Shown: one piece after another, positions 10,105-29,034 of the stretch
Position numbering within the stretch: the stretch's first letter is position 1
How the letters are laid out: the number at the start of each line of letters is the position of its first letter
Assembly: GCF_002075285.3 (NCBI RefSeq)
Contig: NZ_CP021983.2
Coordinates: 1,290,001-1,322,000 of the forward strand
DNA length: 32,000 nucleotides
Reading direction: 5' to 3'
Source of the DNA: Halomicronema hongdechloris C2206
Lineage (GTDB): Bacteria; Cyanobacteriota; Cyanobacteriia; Phormidesmidales; Phormidesmidaceae
Program-made: the position numbers and the translations under genes
Notes under the pieces: model-generated
What the model was told of the DNA's origin: nothing
What the model saw: only the letters and a program-made list of their open reading frames with translations
Database searches by the model: none

Positions 10105-10114
10105 TAAAACGGTT

Positions 10115-13534: not shown

Positions 13535-14059
13535 TCAGGGAGTAACACTAGGATTATTGCAATTATCGCCTTCAGTGGTTTTTAGACTACCGAGTAAATT
13601 GGCCACAATCACACACCGCTGAGCCGGTACTCCCGTAGGCGAAATGCTGAATACAAAAGGCACACTGGCCTCATCTTCGGGTCTGCCCTGATAATCAAAA
13701 GTTACAGACGTAGCCGGATTCGTGTCTTCGTTGATGTAAGCACTTAACTGGATGGTTCCTTCCGGAAAATTGCCACCGCCCAGTATCTGCGTCGTTCCAT
13801 CACTTACCGAAGGAACAGCGGGATCCACAATACTAACTGTCACATTTCGCCGTTGCTGACGGGCCGTTGTCTGCGCCTGTTTCAGCACGTCTACCAAATC
13901 GCTGCGGACAGTGTTCATTCTCTGCCGGTTTAAGAAGGCCAACCAGCCCGGGGCAGCGATGCCTGCCAGGATGGCCACTATGATCAAAACAACTAAGCCT
14001 TCCAACAGGGTAAAGCCAGCATGCGAGGGAGATTTTAGATGCTGCAAACAGCGCTTCAT
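13535..14059 (-). CDS. hpsD: prepilin-type N-terminal cleavage/methylation-domain protein, HpsD-like pseudopilin
   Basis: 174-aa ORF with the class III signal GFTLLEGLVVLIIVAILAGIAAP. It is the last of three pseudopilin genes behind a giant hpsA-like gene. This matches the hpsA-B-C-D order described in Nostoc punctiforme. Confidence 0.6.
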   Translation of the reverse strand: MKRCLQHLKSPSHAGFTLLEGLVVLIIVAILAGIAAPGWLAFLNRQRMNTVRSDLVDVLKQAQTTARQQRRNVTVSIVDPAVPSVSDGTTQILGGGNFPEGTIQLSAYINEDTNPATSVTFDYQGRPEDEASVPFVFSISPTGVPAQRCVIVANLLGSLKTTEGDNCNNPSVTP

Positions 14060-14080
14060 GGCGGATAGCCCTTAGTCAAT

Positions 14081-15055
14081 TCAGTTAGTATTGGGTTGTT
14101 TATTTAAGATGCCGCGGATCAAGATCTGAGCTTGTAAGGTGGGCAGACGCCCTTCTTCACTGTAGGTGTTGATTAAGCCCGGTCGACCAGTGGTGGCATT
14201 TCCTCTCAGATACACGATCAGATCTTGATTTAAGCGGTCTATGGCATCTTCGGCGTCAGGATCTGTGCCTCGCACACACACGAAGAAACTATTGCCATCG
14301 GCTGGCGTGGAGGGGATGCGCTCATAGGCCGATGAGGGACAGTTGGCCAAATCTGAGGGGGGCGTGGCAGTGGCAAGATCGACATAGTCGACCAGTACAG
14401 CCGAAAACCCATCAGTGTTAACGCTATTATCAGCAGTCCAGTTGGAAAAGCTATTGGTTTCGCCAGACTGCGTTGGATGCTCAGTAGTGGGATCGGCATA
14501 ACCATCCCGGGTAGTTAGGTTAGACACATCAGCATATTTAGGCAACTCATAGCGAATAATCCGCGACGGCCCCTGCCAAATATCGCTAGCCGCATTGTCT
14601 TGTTGTAAATACACCACCAGGTTATAGGTACTGTGCCTCACCTTCAGGGTATTGCACTCCTCCTCTTCCGTCCCAGAAAAGGCGGTGGAACAGTCTCCGA
14701 TGCCTGCGTAGTCATCTGAATCTAGGGGCTCTAACCGCCAGAAGGCCAAAATGGGCTCTCCAGCAGGCAAGTCATCCAGTTGACTGGTCACAGTCGTGGG
14801 TGTGGAGTAGACAAAGACCGCTTCTTGGGCATCTCGGGTGATGTAGGTCATGGCCCGCTGCATATTGGTTTGGGTCTCGGTCAGGGCTTCCTCCCGGCGA
14901 TTAATTTGCAACAGCTCTACGACCAAATACAGCAACCCTGATACCACAATACTGGCAATGATTAACGAGACCAGCACTTCCAGCAACGTAAACCCAGCTC
15001 GTTTGCCGCGTAGCAGGTGATGGTAGAGATGGAACCCAAGCCGTCGAGAAACCAT
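14081..15055 (-). CDS. hpsC: prepilin-type N-terminal domain protein, HpsC-like pseudopilin
   Basis: 324-aa ORF with GFTLLEVLVSLIIASIVVSGLL after a basic leader. It is second in the pseudopilin triplet. Confidence 0.6.
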   Translation of the reverse strand: MVSRRLGFHLYHHLLRGKRAGFTLLEVLVSLIIASIVVSGLLYLVVELLQINRREEALTETQTNMQRAMTYITRDAQEAVFVYSTPTTVTSQLDDLPAGEPILAFWRLEPLDSDDYAGIGDCSTAFSGTEEEECNTLKVRHSTYNLVVYLQQDNAASDIWQGPSRIIRYELPKYADVSNLTTRDGYADPTTEHPTQSGETNSFSNWTADNSVNTDGFSAVLVDYVDLATATPPSDLANCPSSAYERIPSTPADGNSFFVCVRGTDPDAEDAIDRLNQDLIVYLRGNATTGRPGLINTYSEEGRLPTLQAQILIRGILNKQPNTN

Positions 15056-15106
15056 GGCGCTAGAAGAAGTTAAATACGTTAACCAAACGAATAAAAGATG
15101 CTGTTG

Positions 15107-15862
15107 TCAGGTACATCCCTGCGGGGTTGAGTCGCCAGGGCTGCTGATCAGGTCGAAGTATTCACAGTAAGATTCCGTGTCTTCCCCCCGCACAACACTG
15201 GTGTAGAGCGCAGCCAAAGGCCGTCTGCCCCGTTCCCCTTCTCCGCCAGTAATGCCTAAGCGCGATGGGTCGGCCTCTAGGGTGTTGGTGCTGGTGGAGT
15301 CTAGGGCCTGAATGTCATAGACCCGAACTCCCAGACCGAAGGCCACTGGTTTATTGCCTATGGATACTCCACCGGTGCGATAGACCTGGATGCCGAAATC
15401 CGGATCGCCATCCCCATCAACATCGACGGCCCGGGTTTTAGTCGGTGGCAGGGAGTCATAGGCGGTTGTCGAATCTAGGGGATCTTCTTGGTCTGGAGGC
15501 ACCATCGTAGCAGGCGTGGAGTCATTCAGACTGGGCACAGACTGGGGTAAATCGGTATCCTCGTACCCCCCCTGCTCCACGATTAATCGCACTTGGTCGA
15601 TTTCCCCTTGGGCTACAGCCAAGGCCTGTTCCGCCCGCTGGCTCTGCACCCGTGTAGCCACAGCAATTACCAGAGCCGGGGTAATGGCCCCCAAGGTGAG
15701 GGCAATCACGACAATCGCTACTAGGGTTTCGATCAGGGTCAAGCCATCTTCTTGACAGGCAAGGTGGCAATCGCCTCGCTGCAGAGCCAAGCGCTGTAAT
15801 TTTCTCCGAATGGATAGCATCAGCAAGGCGATACACCTCCTACCAGAATCAACTAGGGACAT
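15107..15862 (-). CDS. hpsB: prepilin-type N-terminal domain protein, HpsB-like pseudopilin
   Basis: 251-aa ORF with GLTLIETLVAIVVIALTLGAITPAL. The listed start overlaps the hpsA stop by 10 nt. An in-frame ATG at 15820 (MLSIRRK...) is an alternative start. Confidence 0.6.
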   Translation of the reverse strand: MSLVDSGRRCIALLMLSIRRKLQRLALQRGDCHLACQEDGLTLIETLVAIVVIALTLGAITPALVIAVATRVQSQRAEQALAVAQGEIDQVRLIVEQGGYEDTDLPQSVPSLNDSTPATMVPPDQEDPLDSTTAYDSLPPTKTRAVDVDGDGDPDFGIQVYRTGGVSIGNKPVAFGLGVRVYDIQALDSTSTNTLEADPSRLGITGGEGERGRRPLAALYTSVVRGEDTESYCEYFDLISSPGDSTPQGCT

Positions 15863-18800
15863 GTGACATTGGGGAAATCAGAGGCATTGAATACCCGGGT
15901 GCCCCCATCATCGGTAGCACAGAGCAAATTTTCGATGTAAGGGTCATTCGCAGGCAGTTCTCGGTAGTACTCGCTGCGAGGCGACTCAATGGTGACGAAG
16001 CGTCGCGCTGCCGGGGCTGGCGGCTGGTAGAGCAAACCCACATCAAATCCCCAGCGTCGACCGGGCGGACTGTAGAAGTAGATGTTGTTTTCATTGATAT
16101 CCGCTGATTGCGTCCTTTCCCAGGCATCCTGGTCGAACAAGCCGGTACTGCCGGTGGAGAAATCGAACTGGAAGAAGGATCCGGCGATGAACAAATCGAT
16201 AGCATTATTGAAAGTCTCGTCAGACTTAGTTGTACCGGTATTCCACAGTTCTAAGAATCTGGGGAAGTTGTGAAAGCCGCCATTGTTCTGACCGCCTTGG
16301 GAGGGAATAATGCCACTGATGAACAGTGAATTCACGAAGGTTTCTCCGGCCCGAATTAAGTTGCGCTTGTGCCTCTTTTCATCGTCACTATCAAATCCGA
16401 ACTCAATAAAGTTACCGACACCAAAGGGATCCTTATTATCTAGCTCAAAATTAGGCCAAGGGTCGGCAGTTGGTGGTGAATCATCATCATATCGATTAAT
16501 GTAATAACCACCGTTACGGTCAATCCAAACCGGCGCCGCTGGATCATCAGGATCATTAGTATTTGGATCAACATCTTCTTCATAGAGCCACTCTCCTTCT
16601 TGAACCCATCTCTCTCGATTAAAGATAGAGCCGGGATCTGAGGGATCTGTCTCAAAGTAGGGGCGATTCTGGTTTTGGTAAGAGGATTCTCCTGCTCCAT
16701 AGTTAGCCGGAGTAATCTCAAGAAAAGTATCGTCAACGGCCCCATCCTGGAAGTTGTCCGACAGGATCGTGAATGAATCAGACAAAATCTCTACCGGTCG
16801 CCAATGGTCATCGTCGAGGGTGGCAAAGGTATCGGTGTTGAGGTCAGTGCGAGCGGTATAGAACGGATCGCCATAGGCAACATCGCCATCATTAAGAGTT
16901 TGGCCGTCTACGAACTCTTCTAGATTTGGTGTCACCCCATCGTCGCTGTGCAGGTTGAAGTTGCCCTGGATATAGACCGAGTTATCGGTGACAAAGGTCA
17001 TCCCTGGGTCTCTATCTAGGTCGCCACTGATATCGGCCCCATCTTTAAATCGGAAGCCATGGTTACGCCGCATCGGGTCGGGATAATAGTCCACAGGTTT
17101 GGGGCTGACGAGGCGATCGCTCAGCGGCGGGTCTTGAATCGTGCCCCCGGGCTCAACCGTCATCCTGCAGTCATTATCAGTCTTGAGGTTAGCCAGCACC
17201 GAACAATCGGTGGTTGCACTAGGTCCCCAGCCAGCATCGGTGTGTTTCGGTCGTACGATTTCGTCTTCCCGCACGGCGTCTTCTCGGAAGGCATAGATAA
17301 TGCCCTCACCGCCATTCTCTCGATCTGCCGCTAGCCAGTAATCACCAGAACCATTGGTTTCGTTAGCAAGGCGGCTGAGGTCAATGTCGAGCACTCGGAT
17401 TGCTAGCTGTTCCCGACCGTCGTAGATGCCCTTATCGAGGAAAGGAATATTCAGAATACCACCAGCCGGATTATTAATAGCGAATGGCCTATCATCGGGC
17501 TGATTACCAGCAGATGTGTCTAAATCAGCCGAGGAATCAGCCGTAAACGGAAGTTGCCATGTTGGTGTACCCCCTGGGACCCGAGCAACTAGAGCAAGAT
17601 CAGATAAGTTATCAGGTTCATCAGCACCATCATCTACAACTTGATAAGTGAATCCGTCGTTAACTAGGACACTGGATATTAAATAAGGCGGGATTAAACC
17701 TGGATCAACTGCTGTGGCATCAATGTATTCCTCTCCAGTGGGTTGAGCTGTATCGGCAATTCCCAAAGCCGTTAGCTCAGTTGAGTCAGCACTTGCGCTC
17801 TGATCATGGCTCGCCCTAGGAAATAGATAATAAAGGGAAGGATACTTTGGAACGTTTGTCTTTGGACATAGGGCTAGCGCGAGTGTGAGCGCTTCTTCAG
17901 GATCTGTAATGCCAAAGTCACTAAATGAGTTTGGATCACAGCTGAGGTTATATGAAATAGGCGGATCGTCGCCGTAGGTCGTCCCTACAGCATCGAGCTC
18001 AAAAGTCCCATTAGCCTGGTCATAGATCCCGAATAGTGGTGTGGGTGGGGTAGCTGCTGCTTCAAGTCCTGCGCCGGTAGCAAAACCGAAGGTCCGGTCT
18101 CTGAGAACCTGCCAGTAATCTGCAGCAACCTTCATGCGAGCTATTTCAGCTGCGGGTGCACCTGCAGCTTCAGCCTCCTCAATCCAGACGTCAGGTGGTG
18201 TGGTGTCTACATCCGCTAAAGGAACTCCATTATCCACCAGGTCTAATAAAGTTTTGGCGATTCCACTAGCAGCATCACTCCACTGAGCGTCGGTGATGTC
18301 ATCAAACTCTGTGTTGAGGCTGTCTAGGTTGTAAGCCAGCAGGCCGAGCGTACAAGCCGAAGAATGTAGCGTTGCCTGGTCGGCAAAGCTAAGGCTGCCG
18401 TAACCGGTGCCGCTTTCGACAATTTGCCTCAGGGGAGAGAAGTCACCCCACATAGCGAGATAGGGAAATGGATGAACAAAGTCATCTTGGAACGGCCCAA
18501 AAGAGGGGGCTCCGCCGTGCGGATCTCCAGCGAAGTAGGCAAGATTCTTTAGAGCCTTCTTCAAAGGAGAGGTGGCTAAGTCATATTGAGTCCCGAAGTT
18601 ACTTGCTGTCGCGAAGGTAGAAGGATAGGCAAATTCCCAACCATTGGTGCCATGCCCTTTAAGAAAGTCGACCTTGATATCATCAGCAGTAGTGGTGTTG
18701 AGTGTTAAATAATCAAAGGTACGACTATTGATAATGCTTTCCATAGTGCCGGGATGAGCCGTTAGAGCTACACAAGCTGCTGGGAACTCACCATCTGAGG

Positions 18801-20637
18801 CACTGCCACCCCCCTCGTAGTGATACACCACCATCCCCTGTACAGCCGCCAGATTATCCCGCAGCGAGCGGCGCTGTAGCACTTCATGGGGACCACCCCG
18901 GTCAGCACCTGTCAATCCCAAGGTTAGGTCAGGAGGATAGAGTGAATCAGGCTGAGAAATAGGGTTATTGTTAGGATTAGAACTTGGATCCGTTATATTC
19001 GGATCTGAAGTGGTATCTAGAGGGCTGGCATTCCAACCATATGTATTCCCCAGCTCTAGTCGCTCGCCCACGATCAGGCGTAAGCCCCTATTAATAGCTT
19101 GCCGTTCCCAAAAACCATCTAGACCTTCGTTTTCATCGGTTAATTCACCTACAGCTGTGATGGGATCGCCAACCTGCTTATTATCTGCCTCAAGGCCATG
19201 CTCTTCGTTGTATTTAGGCTTGGGTCCCCAGCGATCATCGGCGCGGTAGAAGTCATCGACGAAGGGTCTGATCACGTTGTCGTTTAGAATGCGACCTTGC
19301 TGGGAGGCATCTGAATTAGGCCAGTTTGGATCGCGGTCCCAAGTGCTGGGATCAATGTGCTCGTGAATGCCTTTGGTTAATAACGTCAGAGGGTTAGTAG
19401 CAATATCTGATAGCTTGGCGCCAGCATCAGTCGTCACAGAGTCATCCCCATTTCCCATGTCCCAGCCGGTTCTAGGGGGAGTATTATCGTCTGTTTGATA
19501 CAGGTGAAAATCTGCACTACTACCAGAAAAGTCGTCCTGGGTAACGGCTCCTTTCACCACTTGCCCCTGAAAGCCACCAGAATCAGGGTCAGGATTATTC
19601 TCATCCTGAGATAAGGTGATTTCTGATGACTCCTGGCTATACAAACAGGAGTTATGAGAGCTGACCATATGAGCATTTAATCCTCCCCGGACGAACAGAT
19701 TACCGTCCGTATGCATTGCTCCGTTCCAGTTAAAGTCAGGACCGGGGAAGATCTCTAGATCGTAGTTAAACCAGGCTCCCCATTTATTTGCCCTCTCCGC
19801 CTCCCGAGCCTGTTGAAACTCTAGGGTCTCCAGGGTGCGATTGACGTCGTTGCTATTGATGGCGAAGGCATTCACCTGAAAGTTTTTCTGCAGGGTAGAG
19901 TTATTGGCAGCATCCACTACCTGCCAACCCCCTTCAGAAATAGCCCCTTGGCAGAGCTCGGTGGCTTCAGTGGTGGCCAGGGGGCCGGTGCGGGTCACTA
20001 GAGCCTGGGCCTTATTTTGGCTGGGAGGCTCTTGTAGGGTAACGTCAGCTTCTTCGTAGGGACCGGCATCATCCACCAAAATGGAATAGATAACGACTTC
20101 GTCGCTAGCAACGGTGCCATCGCCATTGATATCAGACTTAAATACCCAGGCGTTATCTAGCCCTTCATCGTCGGGGTGATTCGGGTTGAGATTAATCCGG
20201 GTTTCATCTGGCAATGTGTAGGGATCACCAATGGCTGATACCCGGCCAGTGTACATTCCAGCCGGGTCCAGCATCATATCAGCCAAGATATCGCTGGCGG
20301 GAAGACCAGACGGGAAGCGGGGATCTTTATTGAAGAGAAACTCGATCTTGGCTTTGGCCCGGTCAATGGCGGGGGTGGCGGCGTTGACAATAACTTTTTG
20401 CTCTCGCTGGGCGATGATCTGCCCACTGCGGCCCAGGGATCGAAAGGTTAGTGCCCCGGCAGTGAGAACGATCAAAAGCAGTAATAGCGTGGTTGTCGGC
20501 AGCACGAAGCCAGAGCGGGCCAGGCGGGAGGGTTGGCTAACCAGCCAGAACAGCCGCAGCAGGCGGGTCATAAACCGCTTTAGCAGGGTCTGGGGCAGTT
20601 GCCAAAACCGACGAAGGTGACGACGAAAAGATGCCAT
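15853..20637 (-). CDS. hpsA: giant secreted/cell-surface protein, HpsA-like (hormogonium polysaccharide secretion system component)
   Basis: Uninterrupted 1594-aa ORF. It has a basic N terminus followed by GFVLPTTTLLLLLIVLTAGAL (a pilin-like hydrophobic helix). The sequence is D/N/G/T/P-rich and acidic. It is followed by three pseudopilin genes, as in hps loci. Confidence 0.6.
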   Translation of the reverse strand: MASFRRHLRRFWQLPQTLLKRFMTRLLRLFWLVSQPSRLARSGFVLPTTTLLLLLIVLTAGALTFRSLGRSGQIIAQREQKVIVNAATPAIDRAKAKIEFLFNKDPRFPSGLPASDILADMMLDPAGMYTGRVSAIGDPYTLPDETRINLNPNHPDDEGLDNAWVFKSDINGDGTVASDEVVIYSILVDDAGPYEEADVTLQEPPSQNKAQALVTRTGPLATTEATELCQGAISEGGWQVVDAANNSTLQKNFQVNAFAINSNDVNRTLETLEFQQAREAERANKWGAWFNYDLEIFPGPDFNWNGAMHTDGNLFVRGGLNAHMVSSHNSCLYSQESSEITLSQDENNPDPDSGGFQGQVVKGAVTQDDFSGSSADFHLYQTDDNTPPRTGWDMGNGDDSVTTDAGAKLSDIATNPLTLLTKGIHEHIDPSTWDRDPNWPNSDASQQGRILNDNVIRPFVDDFYRADDRWGPKPKYNEEHGLEADNKQVGDPITAVGELTDENEGLDGFWERQAINRGLRLIVGERLELGNTYGWNASPLDTTSDPNITDPSSNPNNNPISQPDSLYPPDLTLGLTGADRGGPHEVLQRRSLRDNLAAVQGMVVYHYEGGGSASDGEFPAACVALTAHPGTMESIINSRTFDYLTLNTTTADDIKVDFLKGHGTNGWEFAYPSTFATASNFGTQYDLATSPLKKALKNLAYFAGDPHGGAPSFGPFQDDFVHPFPYLAMWGDFSPLRQIVESGTGYGSLSFADQATLHSSACTLGLLAYNLDSLNTEFDDITDAQWSDAASGIAKTLLDLVDNGVPLADVDTTPPDVWIEEAEAAGAPAAEIARMKVAADYWQVLRDRTFGFATGAGLEAAATPPTPLFGIYDQANGTFELDAVGTTYGDDPPISYNLSCDPNSFSDFGITDPEEALTLALALCPKTNVPKYPSLYYLFPRASHDQSASADSTELTALGIADTAQPTGEEYIDATAVDPGLIPPYLISSVLVNDGFTYQVVDDGADEPDNLSDLALVARVPGGTPTWQLPFTADSSADLDTSAGNQPDDRPFAINNPAGGILNIPFLDKGIYDGREQLAIRVLDIDLSRLANETNGSGDYWLAADRENGGEGIIYAFREDAVREDEIVRPKHTDAGWGPSATTDCSVLANLKTDNDCRMTVEPGGTIQDPPLSDRLVSPKPVDYYPDPMRRNHGFRFKDGADISGDLDRDPGMTFVTDNSVYIQGNFNLHSDDGVTPNLEEFVDGQTLNDGDVAYGDPFYTARTDLNTDTFATLDDDHWRPVEILSDSFTILSDNFQDGAVDDTFLEITPANYGAGESSYQNQNRPYFETDPSDPGSIFNRERWVQEGEWLYEEDVDPNTNDPDDPAAPVWIDRNGGYYINRYDDDSPPTADPWPNFELDNKDPFGVGNFIEFGFDSDDEKRHKRNLIRAGETFVNSLFISGIIPSQGGQNNGGFHNFPRFLELWNTGTTKSDETFNNAIDLFIAGSFFQFDFSTGSTGLFDQDAWERTQSADINENNIYFYSPPGRRWGFDVGLLYQPPAPAARRFVTIESPRSEYYRELPANDPYIENLLCATDDGGTRVFNASDFPNVTCP

Positions 20638-21012
20638 GTTAAATCGAATCGCCCAAACGACAATGACTGAGGCTCGCGTAGATTGGGGCTGTGTCCTGTA
20701 GGCGGCCGACCCAAGAGGGCTAACTGAGCCAGGCCGAAAGGCTTAGTGGAGAGGGTTGTCGCTCTCTAAGAAGCCTTCAAAACTATAAATCATCAACCAA
20801 GGCTATAGGCTACCCACTTCTACTCAAAAACCGATCAGGGACGCTTAAATCTTTTTGGTGCTATCAATCGGTCTGCAGATACACGTATCTATCTCTGATG
20901 GTTGGGAACCTATGCCGCCAGTCTAGCTCATGTTCATGAAGCTGCCATGATCTGATACGCTCTGTCATTACTTATGGGATTGCTCTACTTATTTGAAGCA
21001 GACAGGGAATGG

Positions 21013-21062
21013 CTCAGCTCCCCTGCTCCCTTGGTGGAAGTAGGGGTCGGGGGAAGAGGGGG
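21013..21062 (+). repeat. leader-like repeat CTCAGCTCCCCTGCTCCCTTGGTGG...GGGGGAAGAGGGGG (paralog at 22434-22476)
   Basis: By-eye alignment with 22434-22476 (CAGCTTAGCTCCCTTGCTCCCTTCTGTGGCGGGGGAAGACGGG). In both places it sits just left of a GGTGGCGCTGTGCTTG segment of the main repeat family. Confidence 0.6.
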
Positions 21063-21116
21063 ATCCATGGCGAAGAGTCATGCATCGGAAATCTACCGGA
21101 TAGCGTAAATCTCCAC

Positions 21117-21153
21117 CTGGCTTCCGGGTGGCGCTGTGCTTGCCCGGAATGAC
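21117..21153 (+). repeat. structured repeat family, copy A (right half only: CTGGCTTCCGGGTGGCGCTGTGCTTGCCCGGAATGAC)
   Basis: Matches the second hairpin of the full units. It is followed by a 48-nt connector, then copy B. Confidence 0.85.
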
Positions 21154-21201
21154 AAGACTCTCCTTCGCAGTAGGTTAGCTACCTGAGAAAACTACACTCT
21201 C

Positions 21202-21324
21202 GTCATTCCCGCGCCTCGCGGAGCGTGCCCAGAGGGCATAGCGGGAATCCAGGGAATAAATCTCAGCCTCGGCTCAGAGCCCTCTGCCTGGATTCCGGGT
21301 CGCGCTGCGCTTGCCCGGAATGAC
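21202..21324 (+). repeat. structured repeat family, copy B (123 bp, full)
   Basis: Runs from GTCATTCCCGCG to GCCCGGAATGAC and contains both hairpins. It is about 85-90 percent identical by eye to copy C. Confidence 0.9.
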
Positions 21325-21372
21325 GGTGATACTTGCCAACGATAATTCCGCTGCCATACGTATCACACTCCC

Positions 21373-21495
21373 GTCATTCCCGCGGCTCACGGAGTGTGCC
21401 CGGAGGGCGTGGCGGGAATCCAGAGAATCAACCTCAGCGACGACTCAAAGGCCTCTATCTGGATTCCGGGTCGCGCTACGCTTGCCCGGAATGAC
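21373..21495 (+). repeat. structured repeat family, copy C (123 bp, full)
   Basis: Sequence: GTCATTCCCGCGGCTCACGGAGTGTGCCCGGAGGGCGTGGCGGGAATCCAG-35 nt-CTGGATTCCGGGTCGCGCTACGCTTGCCCGGAATGAC. It starts exactly 171 bp after copy B. Confidence 0.9.
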
Positions 21496-21543
21496 GACTA
21501 GCCTGATCGCGATGATGTTGAGGCCCGAAGAAAACACACCCCT

Positions 21544-21642
21544 GTCATTCCCGCGGCGGCGGGAATCCAGAGCGTTAACCTCAGCGACGACTCAAAGGCC
21601 TCTGCCTGGATTCCGGGTGGCGCTGCGCTTGCCCGGAATGAC
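21544..21642 (+). repeat. structured repeat family, copy D (99 bp, short hairpin-1 form)
   Basis: The first hairpin is reduced to ATTCCCGC-GGCG-GCGGGAAT. The rest is collinear with copy C. It starts exactly 171 bp after copy C. Confidence 0.9.
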
Positions 21643-21700
21643 GAGTTTCTTTCGCAGTAGGTTGCCTGAAGACCAGCAATGGAGAAATCATCCTGGAATC

Positions 21701-21728
21701 TATCACTGCCATAATGCAGATATGGTAG
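21701..21728 (+). promoter_or_regulatory. conserved 28-nt motif TATCACTGCCATAATGCAGATATGGTAG with extended -10-like TGcCATAAT, 24 nt upstream of the DUF433 ATG
   Basis: 26/28 identical to 22716-22743, which lies upstream of the MNT gene. TG (21707-21708), one nt, then CATAAT (21710-21715) fits the TGnTATAAT extended -10 pattern. The promoter function is inferred only. Confidence 0.4.
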
Positions 21729-21751
21729 AGACCGTGACCTGAGAGGTTAGG

Positions 21752-22033
21752 ATGATTCAAACAACGGAATATATTTATGTTGTTCAGGATGATGAGATCC
21801 TCCACGGAGAGCCTATTATCCAGGGAACTCGTACACCTGTTAGGGCAATTGTTGAAACCTGGCGCATGGGTATTATCCCCGAGGAAATCCCCAAAGGACT
21901 GCCACACCTAACCTTAAGTCAGGTCTTTGGAGCCTTAACTTACTACAGCGACCATCAAGATGAAATTAATCAATTTATTGAAAAAAATCGCATTCCTGGC
22001 GAATTAATTGATCCATTAGTTAGGGATGTGTGA
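21752..22033 (+). CDS. DUF433-domain protein (putative antitoxin)
   Basis: 93-aa ORF with the DUF433 signature ILHGEPIIQGTRTPVRAIV. Its stop overlaps the GTG start of the next gene (GTGA). Confidence 0.8.
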   Translation: MIQTTEYIYVVQDDEILHGEPIIQGTRTPVRAIVETWRMGIIPEEIPKGLPHLTLSQVFGALTYYSDHQDEINQFIEKNRIPGELIDPLVRDV

Positions 22034-22377
22034 GCAGCATATTTGTCTGTCTGTATTTAGATGAAGATGTCAACGTATTGGTGGCCGACTTGCTACAAGC
22101 AAGGGGATTTGACGTCATTACTGTACGAGATGCGGAACAACTTCATGCAACCGATGCAGAGCAACTTGCCTATGCTGTGAGTCAAGGCAGGACTCTGGTT
22201 ACTCACAATAGAACTGACTTCGAAGAACTTGTGCAGAGTTACTTTGATTCAGGTCGTATGCACTATGGAGTTATTTTTGCTGTGCGTCGTTCTCCTCAAG
22301 AGATTGCACAAAGGTTGCTCATTATTCTCAATCAAGTCACCTCAGATGAAATGCAAAATCAGGTTCGGTATATTTAG
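22030..22377 (+). CDS. DUF5615-family PIN-like protein (putative toxin partner of DUF433)
   Basis: 115-aa ORF with LYLDEDV...L...GFDV..V and L.THN..DF, the pattern of DUF5615/Mut7-C-like small nucleases. It is translationally coupled to the DUF433 gene. Confidence 0.75.
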   Translation: MSSIFVCLYLDEDVNVLVADLLQARGFDVITVRDAEQLHATDAEQLAYAVSQGRTLVTHNRTDFEELVQSYFDSGRMHYGVIFAVRRSPQEIAQRLLIILNQVTSDEMQNQVRYI

Positions 22378-22433
22378 GCACGATTACTCCTACTCCTCCG
22401 CCAACAAATTTCACAACCAGCAGATTTTGGCCG

Positions 22434-22500
22434 CAGCTTAGCTCCCTTGCTCCCTTCTGTGGCGGGGGAAGACGGGCATCACGAGGTGGCGCTGTGCTTG
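22434..22500 (+). repeat. second copy of the leader-like repeat (22434-22476) plus a 16-nt fragment GGTGGCGCTGTGCTTG (22485-22500) of the main repeat family
   Basis: By-eye alignment to 21013-21062 and to 21127-21142 of copy A. Confidence 0.6.
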
Positions 22501-22580
22501 AGTTCCCCTCCATCCTCTAGCTCCTTCCTCCCACAAGGGGCGGAAGGAGAACAGCACTCTGCTGAGCAGACAATACTCCC

Positions 22581-22679
22581 GTCATTCCCGCGACGGCGGG
22601 AATCCAGAGAATCAACCTCGGCAGAGACACAGAGACCTCTATCTGGCTTCCGAGTCGCGCTGCCCTTGCCCGGAATGAC
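22581..22679 (+). repeat. structured repeat family, copy E (99 bp, short hairpin-1 form)
   Basis: GTCATTCCCGCGACGGCGGGAATCCAG...CTGGCTTCCGAGTCGCGCTGCCCTTGCCCGGAATGAC. Same length as copy D. Confidence 0.9.
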
Positions 22680-22715
22680 GGTCATGCTTTCCAATGATAA
22701 TTCAGCTGTCATACG

Positions 22716-22743
22716 TATCACTGCCATAATGCAAGTATGGTAG
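22716..22743 (+). promoter_or_regulatory. second copy of the 28-nt motif (TATCACTGCCATAATGCAAGTATGGTAG), 60 nt upstream of the MNT ATG
   Basis: 26/28 identical to 21701-21728. TG at 22722-22723 and CATAAT at 22725-22730. Confidence 0.4.
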
Positions 22744-22802
22744 TAAACATAATCTGGGATTGTTCAACCCGCCCCAGGTCACGCTTCAACGGCAGAATTA
22801 CC

Positions 22803-23144
22803 ATGCCCACCCCTAACTCTCCAGCTATTGATCAAACCCTGCTGACGAACATTGTCCAGCGGTTACGCTCAGCTGGCGCACCACTGAAGGTAGTATTATT
22901 CGGCTCTCAAGCCAGGGGAGACACCCACATCGAAAGCGATTTGGACTTGCTGGTTGTAGAAGAATCGGAACTGCCTCGCCATCAGCGATCACCCCGTTAT
23001 TACAAAGCCCTCGCAGGCATTTTCCCAAGTAAAGATATTACTGTATGGACACCGGCTGAAATTCAAGCATGGTCAGCCGTGCCGAACGCTTTCGTGACGA
23101 CTGCATTACGAGAAGGCAAAATTTTATATGAAAAACCAGCATGA
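22803..23144 (+). CDS. minimal nucleotidyltransferase (MNT-type antitoxin)
   Basis: The track ORF starts at 22737 inside the repeat-derived motif. The in-frame ATG at 22803 gives 113 aa with the GSxxxG...DxD nucleotidyltransferase signature (VVLFGSQARGDTHIESDLDLLVV). Confidence 0.8.
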   Translation: MPTPNSPAIDQTLLTNIVQRLRSAGAPLKVVLFGSQARGDTHIESDLDLLVVEESELPRHQRSPRYYKALAGIFPSKDITVWTPAEIQAWSAVPNAFVTTALREGKILYEKPA

Positions 23145-23250
23145 TTTAGCCGCAGGCTGGTTTCGCAAAGTTCAAGCAATTAGTCTGGCACCACAGATTC
23201 GCACTGCCGTGTTGTCTGTGGTCACACCACAGGAGAGTTCAAATGGATAA
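23128..23250 (+). pseudogene. possible truncated HEPN toxin gene (40 codons)
   Basis: Hand translation from the ATG at 23128 (overlapping the MNT 3' end): MKNQHDLAAGWFRKVQAISLAPQIRTAVLSVVTPQESSNG*. The start (A.GWF.K) resembles HEPN N termini. The ORF stops after 40 aa instead of about 120-130, and no Rx4-6H motif is present. Confidence 0.3.
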
Positions 23251-23310
23251 TGCTCCGGAGCACTCTTTGTGAATGCCAATGACTCTATTTAAGGGGATGA
23301 AGTGAACCCT

Positions 23311-23345
23311 TGGATTCCGGGTCGCGCTACGTTTGTCCGGAATCA
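23311..23345 (+). repeat. structured repeat family, copy F (degenerate right half: TGGATTCCGGGTCGCGCTACGTTTGTCCGGAATCA)
   Basis: Collinear with the second hairpin of copy C, with several substitutions in the terminal arm. Confidence 0.75.
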
Positions 23346-23720
23346 TGGGACTCTCTCTCGCGATCATCTTCGATGATTAGGCTCACTCCGTATACGAGCC
23401 GCAGGAAATCATTATCGGTCAACAAAGTGCTGAGAGCATTGATCAATTCTATGTCACAGTCGACAAGCGACGAGACAGCCTAAATCGGGATACAGCGTTT
23501 TTAACACTAGTGAGGTACACGGATGACCGTAAAACCTTTGATACTAGGAGATAGGCTGTACCTCACCCAGTAAGGAAATGCTGTAGGGAGGATTCTCGCG
23601 AATTGCCCCTCCCACACCCCCTGCTTCCTTAGAGCTAATTTGCAAAGAAAATCTTAAAGAGCTGTCAAGACAAAGGCTTTCAAGGTTTACAGCAATCTTG
23701 AGGGAGTGTTCGTGGTGTTC

Positions 23721-24173
23721 CTAAACTTTAGTGATGACTTCCTGGGGATGCACAACCGCAACACCCGACATACCTGTAAAATCGTCCGGATTTAAGGTGA
23801 GAATGTGGCTAATATCGCAGGTTGTCATTACAGCTACGATACGTGCATCGTGAGTCCGTTTACCTTTTATTTGATTCTTAGTGACTACAGCCAACCAAGT
23901 TGAAAAAATCTGCGGTCTTTCCTCAGCAACCGGGAAACGTTCGAGCAGTTGAGCAATGATGTTATGCGTTTGCTCAACTGACCACCCTAAACCATTCACA
24001 TCAACTGGACGCGTGGCAACGACCCAAAGCTCAATTAAGACTTGCGCTGTTAGGTAGCACTCATCTGCATGCATTAGCAGAGTTGCGACTGCCTCAGTGA
24101 CTAAACGATGCTGTTCATCCGACGGGTTACTAAACCGCAAGACAATATTGGTATCTAGCAAGTACTTGGTCAT
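23721..24173 (-). CDS. vapC: PIN-domain ribonuclease toxin (VapC-like)
   Basis: 150-aa ORF beginning MTKYLLDTNIVL (first PIN acidic residue), with downstream conserved E and D (THDARIVA). Its start overlaps the upstream small gene by 1 nt. Confidence 0.8.
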   Translation of the reverse strand: MTKYLLDTNIVLRFSNPSDEQHRLVTEAVATLLMHADECYLTAQVLIELWVVATRPVDVNGLGWSVEQTHNIIAQLLERFPVAEERPQIFSTWLAVVTKNQIKGKRTHDARIVAVMTTCDISHILTLNPDDFTGMSGVAVVHPQEVITKV

Positions 24174-24442
24174 TACTCATAGATATTGCTACGGTCAAAC
24201 GCCTCATCTGGAAGGCTTAGGCGGGTCTCAGGAAGTTGTGCAATCCATGACCGAAAATCTTCAGCTCGCTCAGCAGGGGTCGCACGTTGCCAAAACGGAA
24301 TATTCCCAGCTAATTTATGAGCTTGACGCTTGATCACGGTCACAAAGTCAGCAATTTTTCTGAGTTGACTCTCGCTAAGCTGATCAATTTCTTGCTTCAG
24401 GGTTTCCCGCAACATAGCTTGTACCTGATTGAGCCTAGACAC
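24173..24442 (-). CDS. putative antitoxin of the VapC-like toxin
   Basis: 89-aa ORF immediately upstream of, and overlapping, the PIN gene. The C-terminal LSLPDEAFDRSNIYE tail resembles cyanobacterial VapB-type partners. The call is made mainly from position. Confidence 0.6.
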   Translation of the reverse strand: MSRLNQVQAMLRETLKQEIDQLSESQLRKIADFVTVIKRQAHKLAGNIPFWQRATPAERAEDFRSWIAQLPETRLSLPDEAFDRSNIYE

Positions 24443-24472
24443 CTAAATTGATCATACATGTATCACACTCCC

Positions 24473-24619
24473 GTTATTCCCGCGTTTCGCGCTCCCGTAG
24501 CGTATACATTGCACTCAGCGTGCCCGAAGGGCGTAGCGGCAATCCAGAGCGTCAACCCTGGCCAGGAAACCAAGCCCTCTGCCTGGATTCCGGGTGGCGC
24601 TGTGCTTGCCCGGAATGAC
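24473..24619 (+). repeat. structured repeat family, copy G (147 bp, long hairpin-1 form)
   Basis: GTTATTCCCGCG...GCGGCAATCCAG-35 nt-CTGGATTCCGGGTGGCGCTGTGCTTGCCCGGAATGAC. The hairpin-1 loop is 24 nt longer than in copies B and C. Confidence 0.9.
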
Positions 24620-24660
24620 AGCCATCTTTATCGCGGTGATGTTGAGTCGGTACCTTATCC

Positions 24661-25251
24661 TTATGACAAATCGCCGCGTAAAATCTCCTCTACAGTGATC
24701 TCGAGTTCTGGAAATGTCGGTGACTGCACAACATCACAGTTGGTGAACTCAGCTGCGTCATACCAGCCTTCAGTCAGCGTAAGAATGGTAGCTTTTGACG
24801 CCAGCGGATCGATGATCCAATATTCAGGGATGTCAAGCACACTATATTCTGCCCGTTTGGCCCGGTAATTGGCACCTTTAGTAGATTCGCTAACAACTTC
24901 TACCACCAGCACAGGGGGAGGCTCATGGAGGTGGATAACCGCCTCACGATTCTGCAGTTCCTGCCATTGGCTTAGCGATAAGACCACAACATCCGGAATC
25001 CGAACGGTATCCCAGCGGTCACCTCGCGGGGACTGGATGCCAATGACCATTTGCCTTGACACCCAATCTTGCCCCAACCGCTTGATTTCATGACGAAAAC
25101 AGGTATTTATGAAGTCGGCAATCTCTCCATGCTGCCCCATTCCCAGCGTCATCGGGACCAGCTCCCCATTCACCAACTCATAGGTAGTGTCTGTACCGTC
25201 GTCATAAGCCAGGTAGTCACTGAGTGTCAGCCGCTGAGTTGTCGTAGCCAT
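24661..25251 (-). CDS. Uma2-family (DUF820) endonuclease-fold protein
   Basis: 196-aa ORF with LTLSDYLAY.....[10 protein letters not shown]......[21 protein letters not shown]...D...K...Y....IPEYWIIDP, the typical Uma2 pattern. Confidence 0.82.
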
Positions 25252-25335
25252 TTAAGCTAGCCGGTTGAAATGCTAATCATTGTATCTGCTGACAGGGTAA
25301 CGCTTTGCCTGGGTTGACGGGCAAAAATCTCATGA

Positions 25336-25350
25336 CTTGCCCGGAATGAC
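25336..25350 (+). repeat. structured repeat family, copy H (15-nt terminal fragment CTTGCCCGGAATGAC) followed by a 47-nt type-1 connector
   Basis: The fragment plus connector (GGTGATGCTTTCCAATGACAATTCAGCTGCCAACAGATCACACTTCC) aligns with the B-to-C junction at 21310-21372. Confidence 0.7.
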
Positions 25351-25397
25351 GGTGATGCTTTCCAATGACAATTCAGCTGCCAACAGATCACACTTCC

Positions 25398-25508
25398 GTC
25401 ATTCCCGCGGCTCACGGAGTGTGCCCGGAGGGCGTGGCGGGAATCCAGAGCGTTAACCCTGGCCAGGAAACAGAGCCCTCTATCTGAAGTCCGGGTGGCG
25501 CTGCCCTT
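25398..25508 (+). repeat. structured repeat family, copy I (111 bp, lacks the last arm)
   Basis: Its first 53 nt are identical to copy C (25398-25450 vs 21373-21425); overall it has about 14 mismatches. It ends at ...GGTGGCGCTGCCCTT without the GCCCGGAATGAC arm. The next Uma2 gene starts 42 nt later. Confidence 0.85.
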
Positions 25509-25549: not shown

Positions 25550-26104
25550 ATGACTCGGACGTTAACCCAATGGAGCGTTGCAGACTACCACCGCATGATT
25601 GCGGCGGGTCTGCTGGCAGACCGGCGGGTCGAACTCTTGAACGGAAACGTGGTTGAAATGGCTCCAGAGCTGCCGATTCATCGGGCCACCTATCGGCGAG
25701 GAGCCAGATATCTAGAAACCCTTCTGGGGGATCGAGCAGTAGTCTTCACCACTGCTCCTATCACCCTACCCAGCAATGGCGAACCCCAACCCGATATTGC
25801 CATCGTGACTCCCCCTGAATCTCGCTACGATGAGCGGCATCCAGGGCCAGAGGATGTCTATTGGGTCATTGAAGTCTCGAACTCGACCCTGGTCTTTGAT
25901 CTGGAAGAAAAAGCTACGCTTTATGCTAGAGACGACATTGCTGAATACTGGGTGGTGGATGTGCCCAATCGTCAGCTCTGGGTGCACCGACACCCGGACG
26001 CCAGCATCTATCGTCAGGTGCAGCCCTTAGCGTCAGGCAATATTAATCCACTAGCCTTTCCAGACCTTGAGATTAGAGTGGAGCGGCTGCTGCCAGAGAA
26101 GTAG
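25550..26104 (+). CDS. Uma2-family (DUF820) endonuclease-fold protein
   Basis: 184-aa ORF with W.V.DYHRMI..G.L....VELL.G.VVEM.PE...H, PDIAIV, VYWVIEVSNST...D...K...YA...I.EYWVVD. Confidence 0.82.
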   Translation: MTRTLTQWSVADYHRMIAAGLLADRRVELLNGNVVEMAPELPIHRATYRRGARYLETLLGDRAVVFTTAPITLPSNGEPQPDIAIVTPPESRYDERHPGPEDVYWVIEVSNSTLVFDLEEKATLYARDDIAEYWVVDVPNRQLWVHRHPDASIYRQVQPLASGNINPLAFPDLEIRVERLLPEK

Positions 26105-26189: not shown

Positions 26190-26816
26190 ATGAATGTATT
26201 TATACTCAATACCGGGCGTTGTGGCTCGACGACGTTCATTAAGGCCTGTAAGCATATTCGTAACTATAGCGCTGCCCATGAATCGCGGGTTCACTTACTG
26301 GGGCCTGCTCGCCTGCAATATCCGCCAAACCATATTGAAGCCGATAACCGCTTGTCTTGGTTTTTAGGCCGCCTCGAGCAAGTTTATGGGGACAACGCCT
26401 TTTACGTGCACCTACAGCGAAATCCCCTCGACACGGCTCATAGCTTTGCTAAACGCTACGATTTTGGCATTATCACTGCTTATCGTTCCGCCGTGCTCAT
26501 TGACTGCCCACCCGAAAGTGATCCGATCAAAGTATGCCTAGACTACTGTGAAACGGTCAATACCAATATTGAGGCATTCTTGGCGGATAAATCCCACACA
26601 ATGACCTTTCATCTAGAGCAAGCCCAGCAAGACTTTGAACGGTTTTGGCAGATGGTGGGGGCGACTGGTGATCTCCCTGCAGCTCTGCAAACATGGGACA
26701 CCACTTATAATGCGGCTGCCACTCAGCGCCGTTACTACACCCATCCGGCCCTAAGATATGGCCATAAGGCACTGCGTATCCTGCGTAAGCTGCCATCTTT
26801 TGTGAGCAATGCCTAG
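26190..26816 (+). CDS. hypothetical protein, sulfotransferase-like N terminus (tentative)
   Basis: 208-aa ORF. The N-terminal ILNTGRCGSTTF resembles the PAPS 5'-phosphosulfate-binding loop (xxGxxRSGTT) of bacterial sulfotransferases. The rest is not recognised. Confidence 0.4.
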   Translation: MNVFILNTGRCGSTTFIKACKHIRNYSAAHESRVHLLGPARLQYPPNHIEADNRLSWFLGRLEQVYGDNAFYVHLQRNPLDTAHSFAKRYDFGIITAYRSAVLIDCPPESDPIKVCLDYCETVNTNIEAFLADKSHTMTFHLEQAQQDFERFWQMVGATGDLPAALQTWDTTYNAAATQRRYYTHPALRYGHKALRILRKLPSFVSNA

Positions 26817-26833
26817 CTTGGTAGCAGGAATCC

Positions 26834-27799
26834 ATGAGTAAACCGAATAGTCCTGGGGATTGGCTGTTTCAGCAGCAGTGGGTTGCTTGGATGTACGATG
26901 CTACCCTAAGGCGGCAACTGCCTCTGCCCTATCGCTTGTTTGCCTATTACTGTGCTCTGCAAAAGAGCATTGGTTGCAGCCAACGCATCAAGAAAGGACG
27001 TCAGTGCCTGCAGTTAATGATGCATCTAAACCATCGGCTGTCTTCCAGCTATGTAGCTCGGTTAGTGCTGCCCAACCAGCTCAGTATCTATGTGAACCTC
27101 AGTGATCCCAGGTTTCTTCGCGTCGTGAACGAACTGGTGAATCCCAACGAAGAAACTGCTACCCTCGACAAGTTTCTCAAGCCAGGCGACACCTTCATCG
27201 ATATTGGGGCGAATCACGGTAGCTTCTCAATTGTGGCCTCTGGCTTGGTTGGGGAAACCGGGCGCATCATTGCCATTGAACCTCAGCCTGTATTAGCTGA
27301 TTTGGTGCGCTGTTCCTTGGCAGATAATGCTAGCTGCGACTACGAGGTCTATGAGATTGCCTGTGGCAGCCGTAGCAGTACGGTCACATTTTTCATACCA
27401 GAGGATACCTCTGGATCTGCAGGAATATTTTCAGCATTTTCAGCCACCCATCGCCATCGCCAACTGACGGTGCCCCTCAGATGTTTGGATGAGGTGCTGC
27501 CATGGCGAGACTTACCCGGCAATCTATTTCTTAAGCTAGATATTGAAGGCAGTGAGTACAATTGCCTAGCTGGCGCACGCCAACTGTTATTACAGCGGCA
27601 GCCCCATATCTTGATGGAGGCTAATCTGAGTACGCTCAAAGCCGCGGACGTTAGTCTGGAACAACTCAAAGCGCTACTGGCTACGCTGCAGTATGGAGAA
27701 TTTGCTGAAGTGAGTGACTTGACGCAGCGCTATCCCTTAGCTGAGTTGCATTTGCGGGGAAAAACCTCCCGTAATATCTTACTGTTTCCCAAAAGCTGA
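26834..27799 (+). CDS. FkbM-family SAM-dependent methyltransferase
   Basis: 321-aa ORF with the FkbM core FIDIGANHGSFS...IIAIEP...L and LKLDIEGSEY. The true start may lie downstream of 26834. Confidence 0.75.
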   Translation: MSKPNSPGDWLFQQQWVAWMYDATLRRQLPLPYRLFAYYCALQKSIGCSQRIKKGRQCLQLMMHLNHRLSSSYVARLVLPNQLSIYVNLSDPRFLRVVNELVNPNEETATLDKFLKPGDTFIDIGANHGSFSIVASGLVGETGRIIAIEPQPVLADLVRCSLADNASCDYEVYEIACGSRSSTVTFFIPEDTSGSAGIFSAFSATHRHRQLTVPLRCLDEVLPWRDLPGNLFLKLDIEGSEYNCLAGARQLLLQRQPHILMEANLSTLKAADVSLEQLKALLATLQYGEFAEVSDLTQRYPLAELHLRGKTSRNILLFPKS

Positions 27800-27885
27800 T
27801 GGGACTCTGGGAGAATATGAGGTTGGCCAGCCAGTTTAGTGCATCTTCCCGGTTAAATAGAAGGCGTTTCAACCAGAAGCCTGGG

Positions 27886-29034
27886 TTACGTGGCGTGGGT
27901 TCGTGCGAAGGCTTGCTCAATGCCATCGATCGTCCGTGATAACGAGAAGTGCGCTACGATGTGCTGTCGACAGCGTTGAGCGAGATCAGGATCAGTGATA
28001 CGCCAAGTCAGGTTATCGGATATGGCTGCCGCCAACTGCGCTGCATTGCCAGGAGAGACTAGCCGCTGTTGAAATTCCTTGGTGAGGATCTCGGGAATAC
28101 CGCCAACGCGACTAGCGACAACGGGAACTCCGCATGCCATTGCTTCGATAATCGTGCGACCAAACGGTTCCGGCCACTCGCTAGGCACTACGACTAGATC
28201 GCTGGCTCGATAGACTTGGCTGGGATCATCCACATGCCCTAGAAAGGTAACTGAGTCGTCTATACGCCAGTTGGTCGCTAGGCGTTTTAGCTCCTGCAGG
28301 TAGCTGGAAGGATCGTTGTGAGGTTTTCCCGCAATGGCTAGGTGCAACTGCGGATACTGCTGTTGTGCCAATGCGAATCCATGCAGCAAAGTCTCAATGC
28401 CCTTACCTCGATCGAGACGCCCTACATAACTAATGAGGTAATACTCAGAGGTATTGAAAGCAGGGGAGATCAATTGAGAGCGTAGGGCATAGGCATCATC
28501 TAGAGTAGCGGCTGCTGTAAATCTTTGGATGTCTATGCCATTGTGCACTACGTCAATGCGTGTGGCGTTATAGCCAATCGCTACCCACTCAGATTTTGTG
28601 TATTGGGAGACGGCAATCTGGCGATGGGCTCCTCGCATACCCAGGCTCCACTGCCACCCTAGATTGGGTGGGGGCGGTAGTCGCACATGACAAACTAATG
28701 GCCGCCTTCTCAAGCGGGCAAGCAGCCAGGCAAAGAAGCTGTCGTGGTACTGATTACAGTAGATGAGGCTGTTGGGCTCAATAGCGATACGCCGCAAATC
28801 CTGCAATAGCTGTCGTCCGGATGCTAATGGCCTTTTCATATCCAGGCGGTAGTGTTCAACCGACAGCATCTGCTGGCAGATATCTTGGTAAGCTGCCAAC
28901 AAGTTTCCTGGTTGCCGATAGAGCAAGGTCAGGGTATGTCCACGCTTAACTAACGCCTGGCAGACATCGAACAGGCTAAGCTCCTGGCCACCGCGACGGG
29001 TCGACGGCTCATTTTCCAAGACAATGAGGTGCAT
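27886..29034 (-). CDS. GT4-family (GT-B fold) glycosyltransferase
   Basis: 382-aa ORF with GG.E near the N terminus and the C-terminal EPFGRTIIEAMACGVPVVASRVGGIPEI (E-x7-E region) typical of GT4 enzymes. Confidence 0.85.
   Translation of the reverse strand: MHLIVLENEPSTRRGGQELSLFDVCQALVKRGHTLTLLYRQPGNLLAAYQDICQQMLSVEHYRLDMKRPLASGRQLLQDLRRIAIEPNSLIYCNQYHDSFFAWLLARLRRRPLVCHVRLPPPPNLGWQWSLGMRGAHRQIAVSQYTKSEWVAIGYNATRIDVVHNGIDIQRFTAAATLDDAYALRSQLISPAFNTSEYYLISYVGRLDRGKGIETLLHGFALAQQQYPQLHLAIAGKPHNDPSSYLQELKRLATNWRIDDSVTFLGHVDDPSQVYRASDLVVVPSEWPEPFGRTIIEAMACGVPVVASRVGGIPEILTKEFQQRLVSPGNAAQLAAAISDNLTWRITDPDLAQRCRQHIVAHFSLSRTIDGIEQAFARTHAT

Follow-up and report, generated by a model that had tools for sequence, protein, structure and literature searches.

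Hairpin repeats in a toxin-antitoxin/Uma2 islet of the cyanobacterium Halomicronema hongdechloris probably belong to the dRS3/NTS family

Between the small genes of a toxin-antitoxin (TA)/Uma2 islet in the filamentous cyanobacterium Halomicronema hongdechloris C2206 lies an array of structured repeats, which we analyzed within a stretch of 32,000 nt (the window; repeat coordinates are positions in it). These repeats are probably members of a known and very widespread family of hairpins, the dRS3/NTS family or 'Ssn-related motifs' (SRM), in a mosaic array resembling those termed NIME and BIME. An original prediction made from the letters of this DNA had proposed either a non-canonical cassette system or an element like repetitive extragenic palindromes (REPs) or miniature inverted-repeat transposable elements (MITEs). 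The REP/MITE-like reading was essentially right about the structured repeats, but it did not recognize the family, whose known partner is a GIY-YIG nuclease acting on single-stranded DNA (ssDNA), not a RAYT or an integrase. The family link was found by a literal literature search with the end sequences of the repeat, which led to the report on the Neisseria Transformation Sequence (NTS) and its nuclease (Chenal et al., 2025; PMC11893778). What we regard as modestly new is the cyanobacterial host, the TA context and the conserved asymmetric arrangement of the hairpins in pairs.

The NTS consensus, CGTCATTCCCGCGMAVGCGGGAATCYRG, embeds the classical dRS3 repeat, defined as ATTCCC-N8-GGGAAT (Chenal et al., 2025). 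In the window, the sequence at 22580–22607 (CGTCATTCCCGCGACGGCGGGAATCCAG, in the repeat copy designated E below) differs from the N. meningitidis NTS consensus by one mismatch, located in the loop, and one mismatch is also the tolerance that the authors of the NTS allowed in their own matching (Chenal et al., 2025). Copy D differs from the consensus by three mismatches. Both copies contain an exact dRS3, at 21547–21566 in copy D (ATTCCCGCGGCGGCGGGAAT) and at 22584–22603 in copy E. The features that define SRM hairpins are the triplet GTC, a stem of the form ATTCC(C/G)G(C/G) and, behind the stem, a C; cleavage and binding by SsnA depend on the palindrome, the three nucleotides upstream of it (GTC) and the C after it (Chenal et al., 2025). 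The GTC and the C are both present in the left hairpins of copies B, C, D, E and I, the exception being copy G, which has GTT; on the minus strand they are both present in the right hairpins of copies B, C, D and G, while in copies A and E the 5' arm of the right hairpin is altered by substitutions, and copy F has a degenerate right hairpin. The motif is thus the same as in the NTS/SRM-SsnA system, namely GTC followed by ATTCCCGCG...CGCGGGAAT and C, and here as there the repeats are intergenic, clustered and oriented, with the same hairpins flanking Ssn genes in other genomes.

The original prediction had listed nine copies, complete or partial, of a single repeat, all on the + strand, and we found them at the same positions together with a tenth fragment at 22486–22503 that had been overlooked. 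The family is confined to 21117–25508, and a hairpin detector run over the 32-kb window returned such hairpins at 21.1–25.5 kb only. The pattern of the right end, TTCCGGG-N12-TGCCCGGAATGAC, gave seven matches at up to three mismatches (0.01 expected from shuffles) and the sequence GTCATTCCCGCG gave six at up to one mismatch (0.19 expected), all on the + strand. Ten copies in 4.4 kb, set against 0.01–0.19 expected pattern matches, exclude chance as the origin of the repeats.

A full copy consists of two convergent hairpins flanking a core of about 36 nt. The left part reads 5'-GTC-ATTCCCGC-loop-GCGGGAAT-CCAG, with a loop of 4, 28 or 52 nt, and the right part, after the core, reads CTGG-ATTCCGGG-14-nt loop-CCCGGAAT-GAC-3'. 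Read on the minus strand, the right hairpin (GTC-ATTCCGGG...CCCGGAAT-CCAG) is the same motif as the left one (GTC-ATTCCCGCG...CGGGAAT-CCAG), and a doublet therefore carries one oriented motif per strand, with the 5' ends pointing outward. The four ATTCC/GGAAT segments can fold either as two local hairpins or, by alternative pairing, as a four-way junction. The hairpins are stable (z-scores from -1.5 to -3.1); no covariation was seen among the window copies, which are too alike to discriminate between the folds. The copies, their spacers and the genes between them are as follows.

21117–21153, + strand: copy A, a right hairpin alone (CTGGCTTCCGGG-TGGCGCTGTGCT-TGCCCGGAATGAC), left hairpin absent
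21202–21324, + strand: copy B, full doublet, with left hairpin at 21202–21252 (26-nt insertion in the loop), core, and right hairpin at 21288–21324
21325–21372, + strand: spacer S1 (GGTGATACTTGCCAACGATAATTCCGCTGCCATACGTATCACACTCCC), which recurs after copies E (22680–22716) and H (25351–25397)
21373–21495, + strand: copy C, full doublet
21544–21642, + strand: copy D, full doublet with short-loop left hairpin
21752–22033 and 22030–22377, + strand: DUF433 and DUF5615 genes, a TA-like pair (Pfam or NCBIfam)
22486–22503, + strand: fragment of the right-hairpin loop (GGTGGCGCTGTGCTTG), with a 16-nt exact match to that loop in copies A and G
22581–22679, + strand: copy E, full doublet
22737–23144, + strand: MntA-like nucleotidyltransferase gene of the antitoxin type (Pfam or NCBIfam); translation probably begins only at the ATG at 22803
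23128–23250, + strand: open reading frame (ORF) of 40 codons after the MntA-like gene
23311–23345, + strand: copy F, degenerate right hairpin, truncated on the left side
23721–24173, - strand: PIN-domain VapC (Pfam or NCBIfam)
24173–24442, - strand: antitoxin-like ORF of 89 aa upstream of VapC, with no family match above threshold
24473–24619, + strand: copy G, full doublet whose left-hairpin loop is lengthened by a 50-nt insertion (beginning GTTATTCC); right hairpin at 24583–24619
24661–25251, - strand: Uma2-family gene (Pfam or NCBIfam)
25336–25350, 25351–25397 and 25398–25508, + strand: copy H, spacer S1 and copy I
25550–26104, + strand: Uma2-family gene with a repeat on its left side only

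The copies are mosaics, because variants of left hairpin, core, loop and spacer interchange between them. Copies C and I have an identical left hairpin but different cores, copies C and D have the same core but different left hairpins, and loop variants and spacer types assort independently. The spacers are themselves repeated, S1 three times and S2-type blocks five times, so that we regard the array as an alternating mosaic of hairpins and blocks rather than as nine separate insertions. Half of the ten copies are cut off inside the repeat (A, F, H, I and the fragment at 22486). Copy H, S1 and copy I together (25336–25508, 173 nt) make up one exact period of the tandem array (171 nt) in circular permutation, with both ends at the CTT in the loop of the right hairpin, and the fragment at 22486–22503 stops at CTTG, in phase with copy I. 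Three truncated copies thus share a breakpoint between CTT and G (CTT/G), at the 3' end of the loop of the right hairpin, for which the simplest account is breakage in the loop followed by illegitimate joining. Because three truncations coincide at one phase of the right hairpin, a site-specific process retains a small probability.

The hairpins are far from restricted to this islet. An exact-pattern scan for the right hairpin with a free loop, taking one genome per species, found at least 120 loci, in Desulfobacterota/Syntrophales, Rhodocyclaceae, Alphaproteobacteria, Betaproteobacteria, Bacteroidales, CPR, Methylomirabilales and others. Among the matches listed, a convergent short-loop left hairpin lay 10–30 nt upstream of 66 of the 121 right hairpins, and the 12-nt loop, although left unconstrained in the pattern, read TCGCGCT(T/G/C/A)CGCT in 87 of the 121. 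Left hairpins picked by their flanks show compensatory changes in the stem: position 8/17 is G-C in 10 cases, C-G in 10 and T-A in two, and position 5/20 is T-A, G-C, C-G or A-T. It follows that the hairpin itself is under selection. In these other genomes solo hairpins outnumber doublets (156 vs 66), and half-hairpins are rare (one vs 142 intact). The pattern of the right hairpin had no match in 2.9 million viral contigs, copy D had none by blastn against the PLSDB plasmids, lineage-specific patterns had none in metagenome contigs, and a six-frame peptide query from the repeat array, aimed at spurious ORFs over other copies, likewise gave no match.

Four of the 120 loci among the matches listed contain an ORF of 95 aa for a GIY-YIG protein of the Ssn type, and in all three loci that were inspected (L032, L088 and L108 in our numbering) this ORF is directly flanked by the hairpins, the protein of L032 being annotated as 'GIY-YIG nuclease family protein' (PF01541). 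The published gene arrangement is NTS-ssnA-NTS (Chenal et al., 2025). The best 120 matches to the Ssn of Sulfuritalea were all close betaproteobacterial relatives, with no cyanobacterial Ssn among them. The H. hongdechloris genome paper with its supplements mentions neither GIY-YIG nor this repeat. The intervals between the same hairpins elsewhere hold tsf (EF-Ts), frr (RRF), uppS-cdsA, nadC, map (methionine aminopeptidase), an MsbA-like ABC transporter gene and a phosphatase gene, whereas a TA-like pair, DUF4160/DUF2442, was found in one interval only.

We also made some side observations on these genomes. An identical 32-nt right hairpin with the same loop occurs in a metagenome-assembled genome (MAG) of Methanobacterium (L053), in CPR (L023, L028 and L036) and in an Actinomycetes MAG (L055); these archaeal, CPR and actinomycete occurrences reflect either very wide horizontal spread or binning contamination. 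In Desulfobacterota MAGs the doublet sits inside a longer element with outer inverted repeats, CTCTTGCAAAAGTC ... GA(C/T)TTT..CAAGAGTTTTGCAA (L002, L010, L022, L029, L033, L048, L059, L066, L076, L077, L079, L100, L101 and L107), a sign that the hairpin pair may have become the nucleus of composite elements specific to this lineage. In L032, P0122, P0128 and P0129, the Ssn protein as called in databases is about 150 aa long rather than 95 aa. Here the open frame extends N-terminally through the flanking hairpins, and the overlong calls are thus likely to be a systematic annotation artefact.

Several observations weigh against the assignment of the islet repeats to the dRS3/NTS family and its nuclease. 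A hidden Markov model (HMM) of 103 Ssn proteins, used together with a GIY-YIG regular expression against the six-frame translation of the window, found no Ssn or GIY-YIG ORF. The published degenerate SRM expression, HGTCWYN(0-2)YYVSBRHN(0-5)WNVSBRGN(0-2)RNCYNB (Chenal et al., 2025), has no exact match in the window either; copies D and E fail it at the single loop position W, and the other copies fail it because their loops of 12–50 nt exceed N(0-5). The blocks of the array measure 36–48 nt, compared with the 50–150 bp typical of RS blocks in Neisseria, and the common CTT/G breakpoint differs from the site at which Ssn is known to cut in Neisseria.

Compared with the published NTS/SRM-SsnA system, the present case differs in that the host is a cyanobacterium, that none of the ORFs of the window is ssnA, and that the cluster lies among TA genes and not among genes for membrane proteins. 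Several left hairpins here have loop insertions of 26–50 nt, beyond N(0-5), and the hairpins form convergent doublets in which the second one is long-looped, with the stem ATTCCGGG and the conserved 12-nt loop. This asymmetric convergent doublet is not mentioned in the main text of the article on Ssn (PMC11893778). The array as a whole is best compared with NIME, in which dRS3 hairpins flank RS blocks (Bentley et al., 2007; PMC1797815). Both are alternating arrays of dRS3-type hairpins and repeated blocks with several block families (here the core types, S1 and S2, S1 being comparable to an RS block) and with mosaic copies, and both have hairpins of high GC content (60.5% GC for the array, compared with 41–55% for the islet genes) and dispensable, variable neighbours. 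Apart from block length, they differ in that the orientation of the hairpins alternates strictly here and in that no link to a filamentous phage or to a Piv-type recombinase was seen here. NIME arrays have been stated not to occur outside Neisseria (Bentley et al., 2007), and as the host is H. hongdechloris we call the array NIME-like but not NIME in the strict sense. REP/BIME and REPIN-RAYT systems share with it the inverted hairpin doublets, the mosaic arrays, the recognition of ssDNA and an enzyme whose gene lies between copies of its repeats, but there the enzyme is of the HUH/Y1 type instead of GIY-YIG, and the sequences are unrelated. The attC sites of integrons are similar in being imperfect palindromes of approximately 100–150 bp that lie between small genes, including TA pairs, and are recognized as folded single strands. 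Unlike attC sites, the repeats here are without R''/R' cores (RYYYAAC/GTTRRRY), IntI and attI/Pc; the genes lie on both strands, copies are internally truncated, and the same hairpins separate housekeeping genes elsewhere.

How such an array might arise and act can be outlined by analogy with Neisseria. Ssn is a single-domain GIY-YIG nuclease of about 95 aa and of the cd10448 type, its gene is typically flanked by the hairpins, it acts on ssDNA and not on RNA, and in Neisseria it lowers the integration of transforming DNA that carries the repeats (Chenal et al., 2025). As in Neisseria, Wolbachia and the other species tested, the hairpins of H. hongdechloris would form when the DNA is single-stranded, and they would then be bound by a cognate GIY-YIG Ssn and cut a few bases 5' of GTC. 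Ancestors of Ssn probably spread the hairpins, and the chromosomal copies may be selfish or domesticated intergenic repeats that multiply and recombine in the dispensable and AT-richer TA/Uma2 islet, which interrupts the hormogonium-polysaccharide (hps) locus. Recombination and breakage among the copies could have produced the mosaic modules and the truncated copies, and might also have cost MntA its HEPN partner. If an Ssn is expressed, an incoming single strand with the islet would be expected to be cut at each doublet. We infer that H. hongdechloris may possess a cognate Ssn; cleavage in this host, and any effect of it on gene transfer, are likewise extrapolated from the species in which Ssn has been characterized.

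The Ssn/NTS system was described only in 2025, and NIME-type arrays have been thought peculiar to Neisseria. In a filamentous cyanobacterium, a near-canonical NTS array within the hormogonium-polysaccharide/pilus locus would widen this system and would provide a tractable case in a non-pathogen for asking whether Ssn nucleases police incoming ssDNA in general, and whether the hairpins are selfish repeats. The convergent doublet, being conserved across phyla down to its 12-nt loop, may define the actual unit of spread.

Mobile elements of a more familiar kind could in principle account for the repeats. An ordinary MITE, bounded by 8-bp terminal inverted repeats (GTCATTCC/GGAATGAC) and moved by a DDE transposase encoded elsewhere, would fit the terminal inverted repeats, the length of 99–147 bp, the multiple copies and their intergenic location, and the genome is reported to contain 123 ORFs related to insertion sequences (H. 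hongdechloris genome paper). We nevertheless consider it quite unlikely, given that the solitary copies E and G are flanked by no target-site duplication, that solo hairpins are far commoner in other genomes than a MITE model predicts, that what accompanies the conserved motif from phylum to phylum is Ssn genes and not a transposase, and that the searches of viral contigs and plasmids described above found no match. That the hairpins are REPs or REPINs mobilized by a Y1 (HUH) transposase like those of IS200/IS605 is in our judgment extremely unlikely. The inverted doublets and mosaic arrays are the same as in REPIN/BIME, and the analogy has been drawn by the authors of the Ssn study themselves (Chenal et al., 2025), yet a Pfam search of the window found no Y1 transposase, the sequence fits NTS/dRS3, whose demonstrated partner is a GIY-YIG nuclease, and the hairpin-flanked genes in other genomes encode GIY-YIG proteins and not RAYTs. 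We also considered transcribed regulatory structures (terminators, insulators or small RNAs) that would separate the transcription units of the islet. The stability of the hairpins speaks for such structures, as does the position of copy G, which has the stop of a Uma2 gene on one side and the start of vapB, a gene on the same strand, on the other. This is set against the absence of any match at the repeats in Rfam, at gathering as well as E-value thresholds, the lack of a U-tract after the hairpins, a terminator scan that found none at the repeats, the inactivity of Ssn on RNA, and the missing covariation among the window copies. We therefore rate such a role as highly unlikely to explain the array, and a transcribed regulatory role would be a secondary effect at most.

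The remaining alternative is a non-canonical cassette system, in which the hairpins serve as integron-like insertion and excision sites for single modules, possibly as single strands. The gene content between the repeats is as had been described (DUF433/DUF5615, MntA-like, VapC with a small ORF, and two Uma2 genes, by Pfam/NCBIfam), except that the ORF at 23128–23250, previously taken for a HEPN remnant, has no HMM support, with approximately 14 N-terminal residues looking HEPN-like by eye only. The claim that every interval holds one small module stood for each gap between repeat loci but did not extend to the last Uma2 gene (25550–26104), which is without a repeat on its right; moreover, one module per interval is uninformative, since any intergenic repeat partitions genes in this way. 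The co-orientation of the copies is, as had been cautioned, not significant over five independent loci (about 1 in 16, p about 0.06). It is weakened because the element bears the motif on both strands, and weakened further by the spacers that neighbouring copies have in common, a sign of local duplication. The cassette idea could also draw on the three truncations at the same CTT(G) phase with the permuted period of H, S1 and I, on the rarity of half-hairpins in other genomes, on an upstream sequence (TATCACTGCCATAATGCA..TATGGTAG) shared by two modules, and on the proposal of gene exchange at dRS3 arrays (Bentley et al., 2007).

Against this, the repeats have no attC cores. Their ends are GTCATTCCCGCG and GCCCGGAATGAC, with the terminal inverted repeats GTCATTCC and GGAATGAC, and do not fit RYYYAAC/GTTRRRY, in agreement with the original prediction, which had also correctly reported that the window holds no intI-type gene and that its only recombinase gene lies 20 kb from the repeats, beside a tRNA-Val gene. 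The recombinase gene is an open frame at 954–1 on the minus strand that is interrupted by the window end; its product is a tyrosine recombinase of generic XerC/D-like type that scores 16.5 bits against the integron-integrase model TIGR02249, far below the cut-off of 265. Both strands carry islet genes, the last module is open on the right, five of the ten copies break off within the repeat instead of ending at its edges, and in other phyla identical hairpins stand between housekeeping genes, namely tsf, frr, uppS-cdsA, nadC, map and an ABC transporter gene. The integron reading was rejected on core sites, integrase score and gene orientation; the non-canonical reading has little in its favor by the same features, together with the internal truncations and the one-sided last module, and we regard it as very unlikely. 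The repeats are thus not sites of a new integron-like cassette system. There is a similarly slim chance that the right hairpin is a crossover or breakage point, at loop position CTT/G, for a GIY-YIG-linked and single-strand-based exchange of gene modules, in which the convergent doublet would be what moves or recombines, as a 'REPIN of the Ssn world'. What leads to this possibility is that three independent truncations share the phase and that 25336–25508 is one permuted period.

As to the setting of the array, the TA genes have a GC content of 41.5–49% and the two Uma2 genes of the islet 51–55%, compared with 54% for the whole window. The interrupted hps locus flanks the islet at 13535–20637 on the left, with HpsA and three pseudopilin-like genes, and at 26190–29034 on the right, with genes for a sulfotransferase-like protein, an FkbM methyltransferase and a GT4 glycosyltransferase. 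Within the islet, a segment of 44 nt (TATCACTGCCATAATGCA..TATGGTAG) is shared with 80% identity between 21701–21744 and 22716–22759. It lies directly upstream of both TA operons on the + strand and begins where spacer S1 ends. A CATAAT hexamer resembling a -10 element is seen in it by eye, though a promoter scan did not flag this hexamer, and the segment may represent a block of the mosaic that carries a promoter. Another small repeat family, GCTyAGCTCCCyTGCTCCCTT ... GGGGGAAGAsGGG, forms an imperfect palindrome at 21012–21065 and 22436–22480 and precedes a right-hairpin fragment at both sites.

Some further features of the window lie apart from the repeats. The tyrosine-recombinase gene adjoins tRNA-Val(GAC) at 1093–1170, which is the usual signature of an integrated element; such an element would lie left of the window and have no relation to the repeat islet. 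A third Uma2-family gene (12521–13360, minus strand) has no hairpin repeats adjoining it and contains, in its C-terminal extension, six to seven copies of a 21-nt tandem repeat (12553–12707). Lastly, approximately 55 tandem units of 7 nt (CTGCCTT/CTGCCCT), with super-periods of 14 and 21 nt, occupy 9753–10151 and resemble the short tandemly repeated heptamers known from cyanobacteria.

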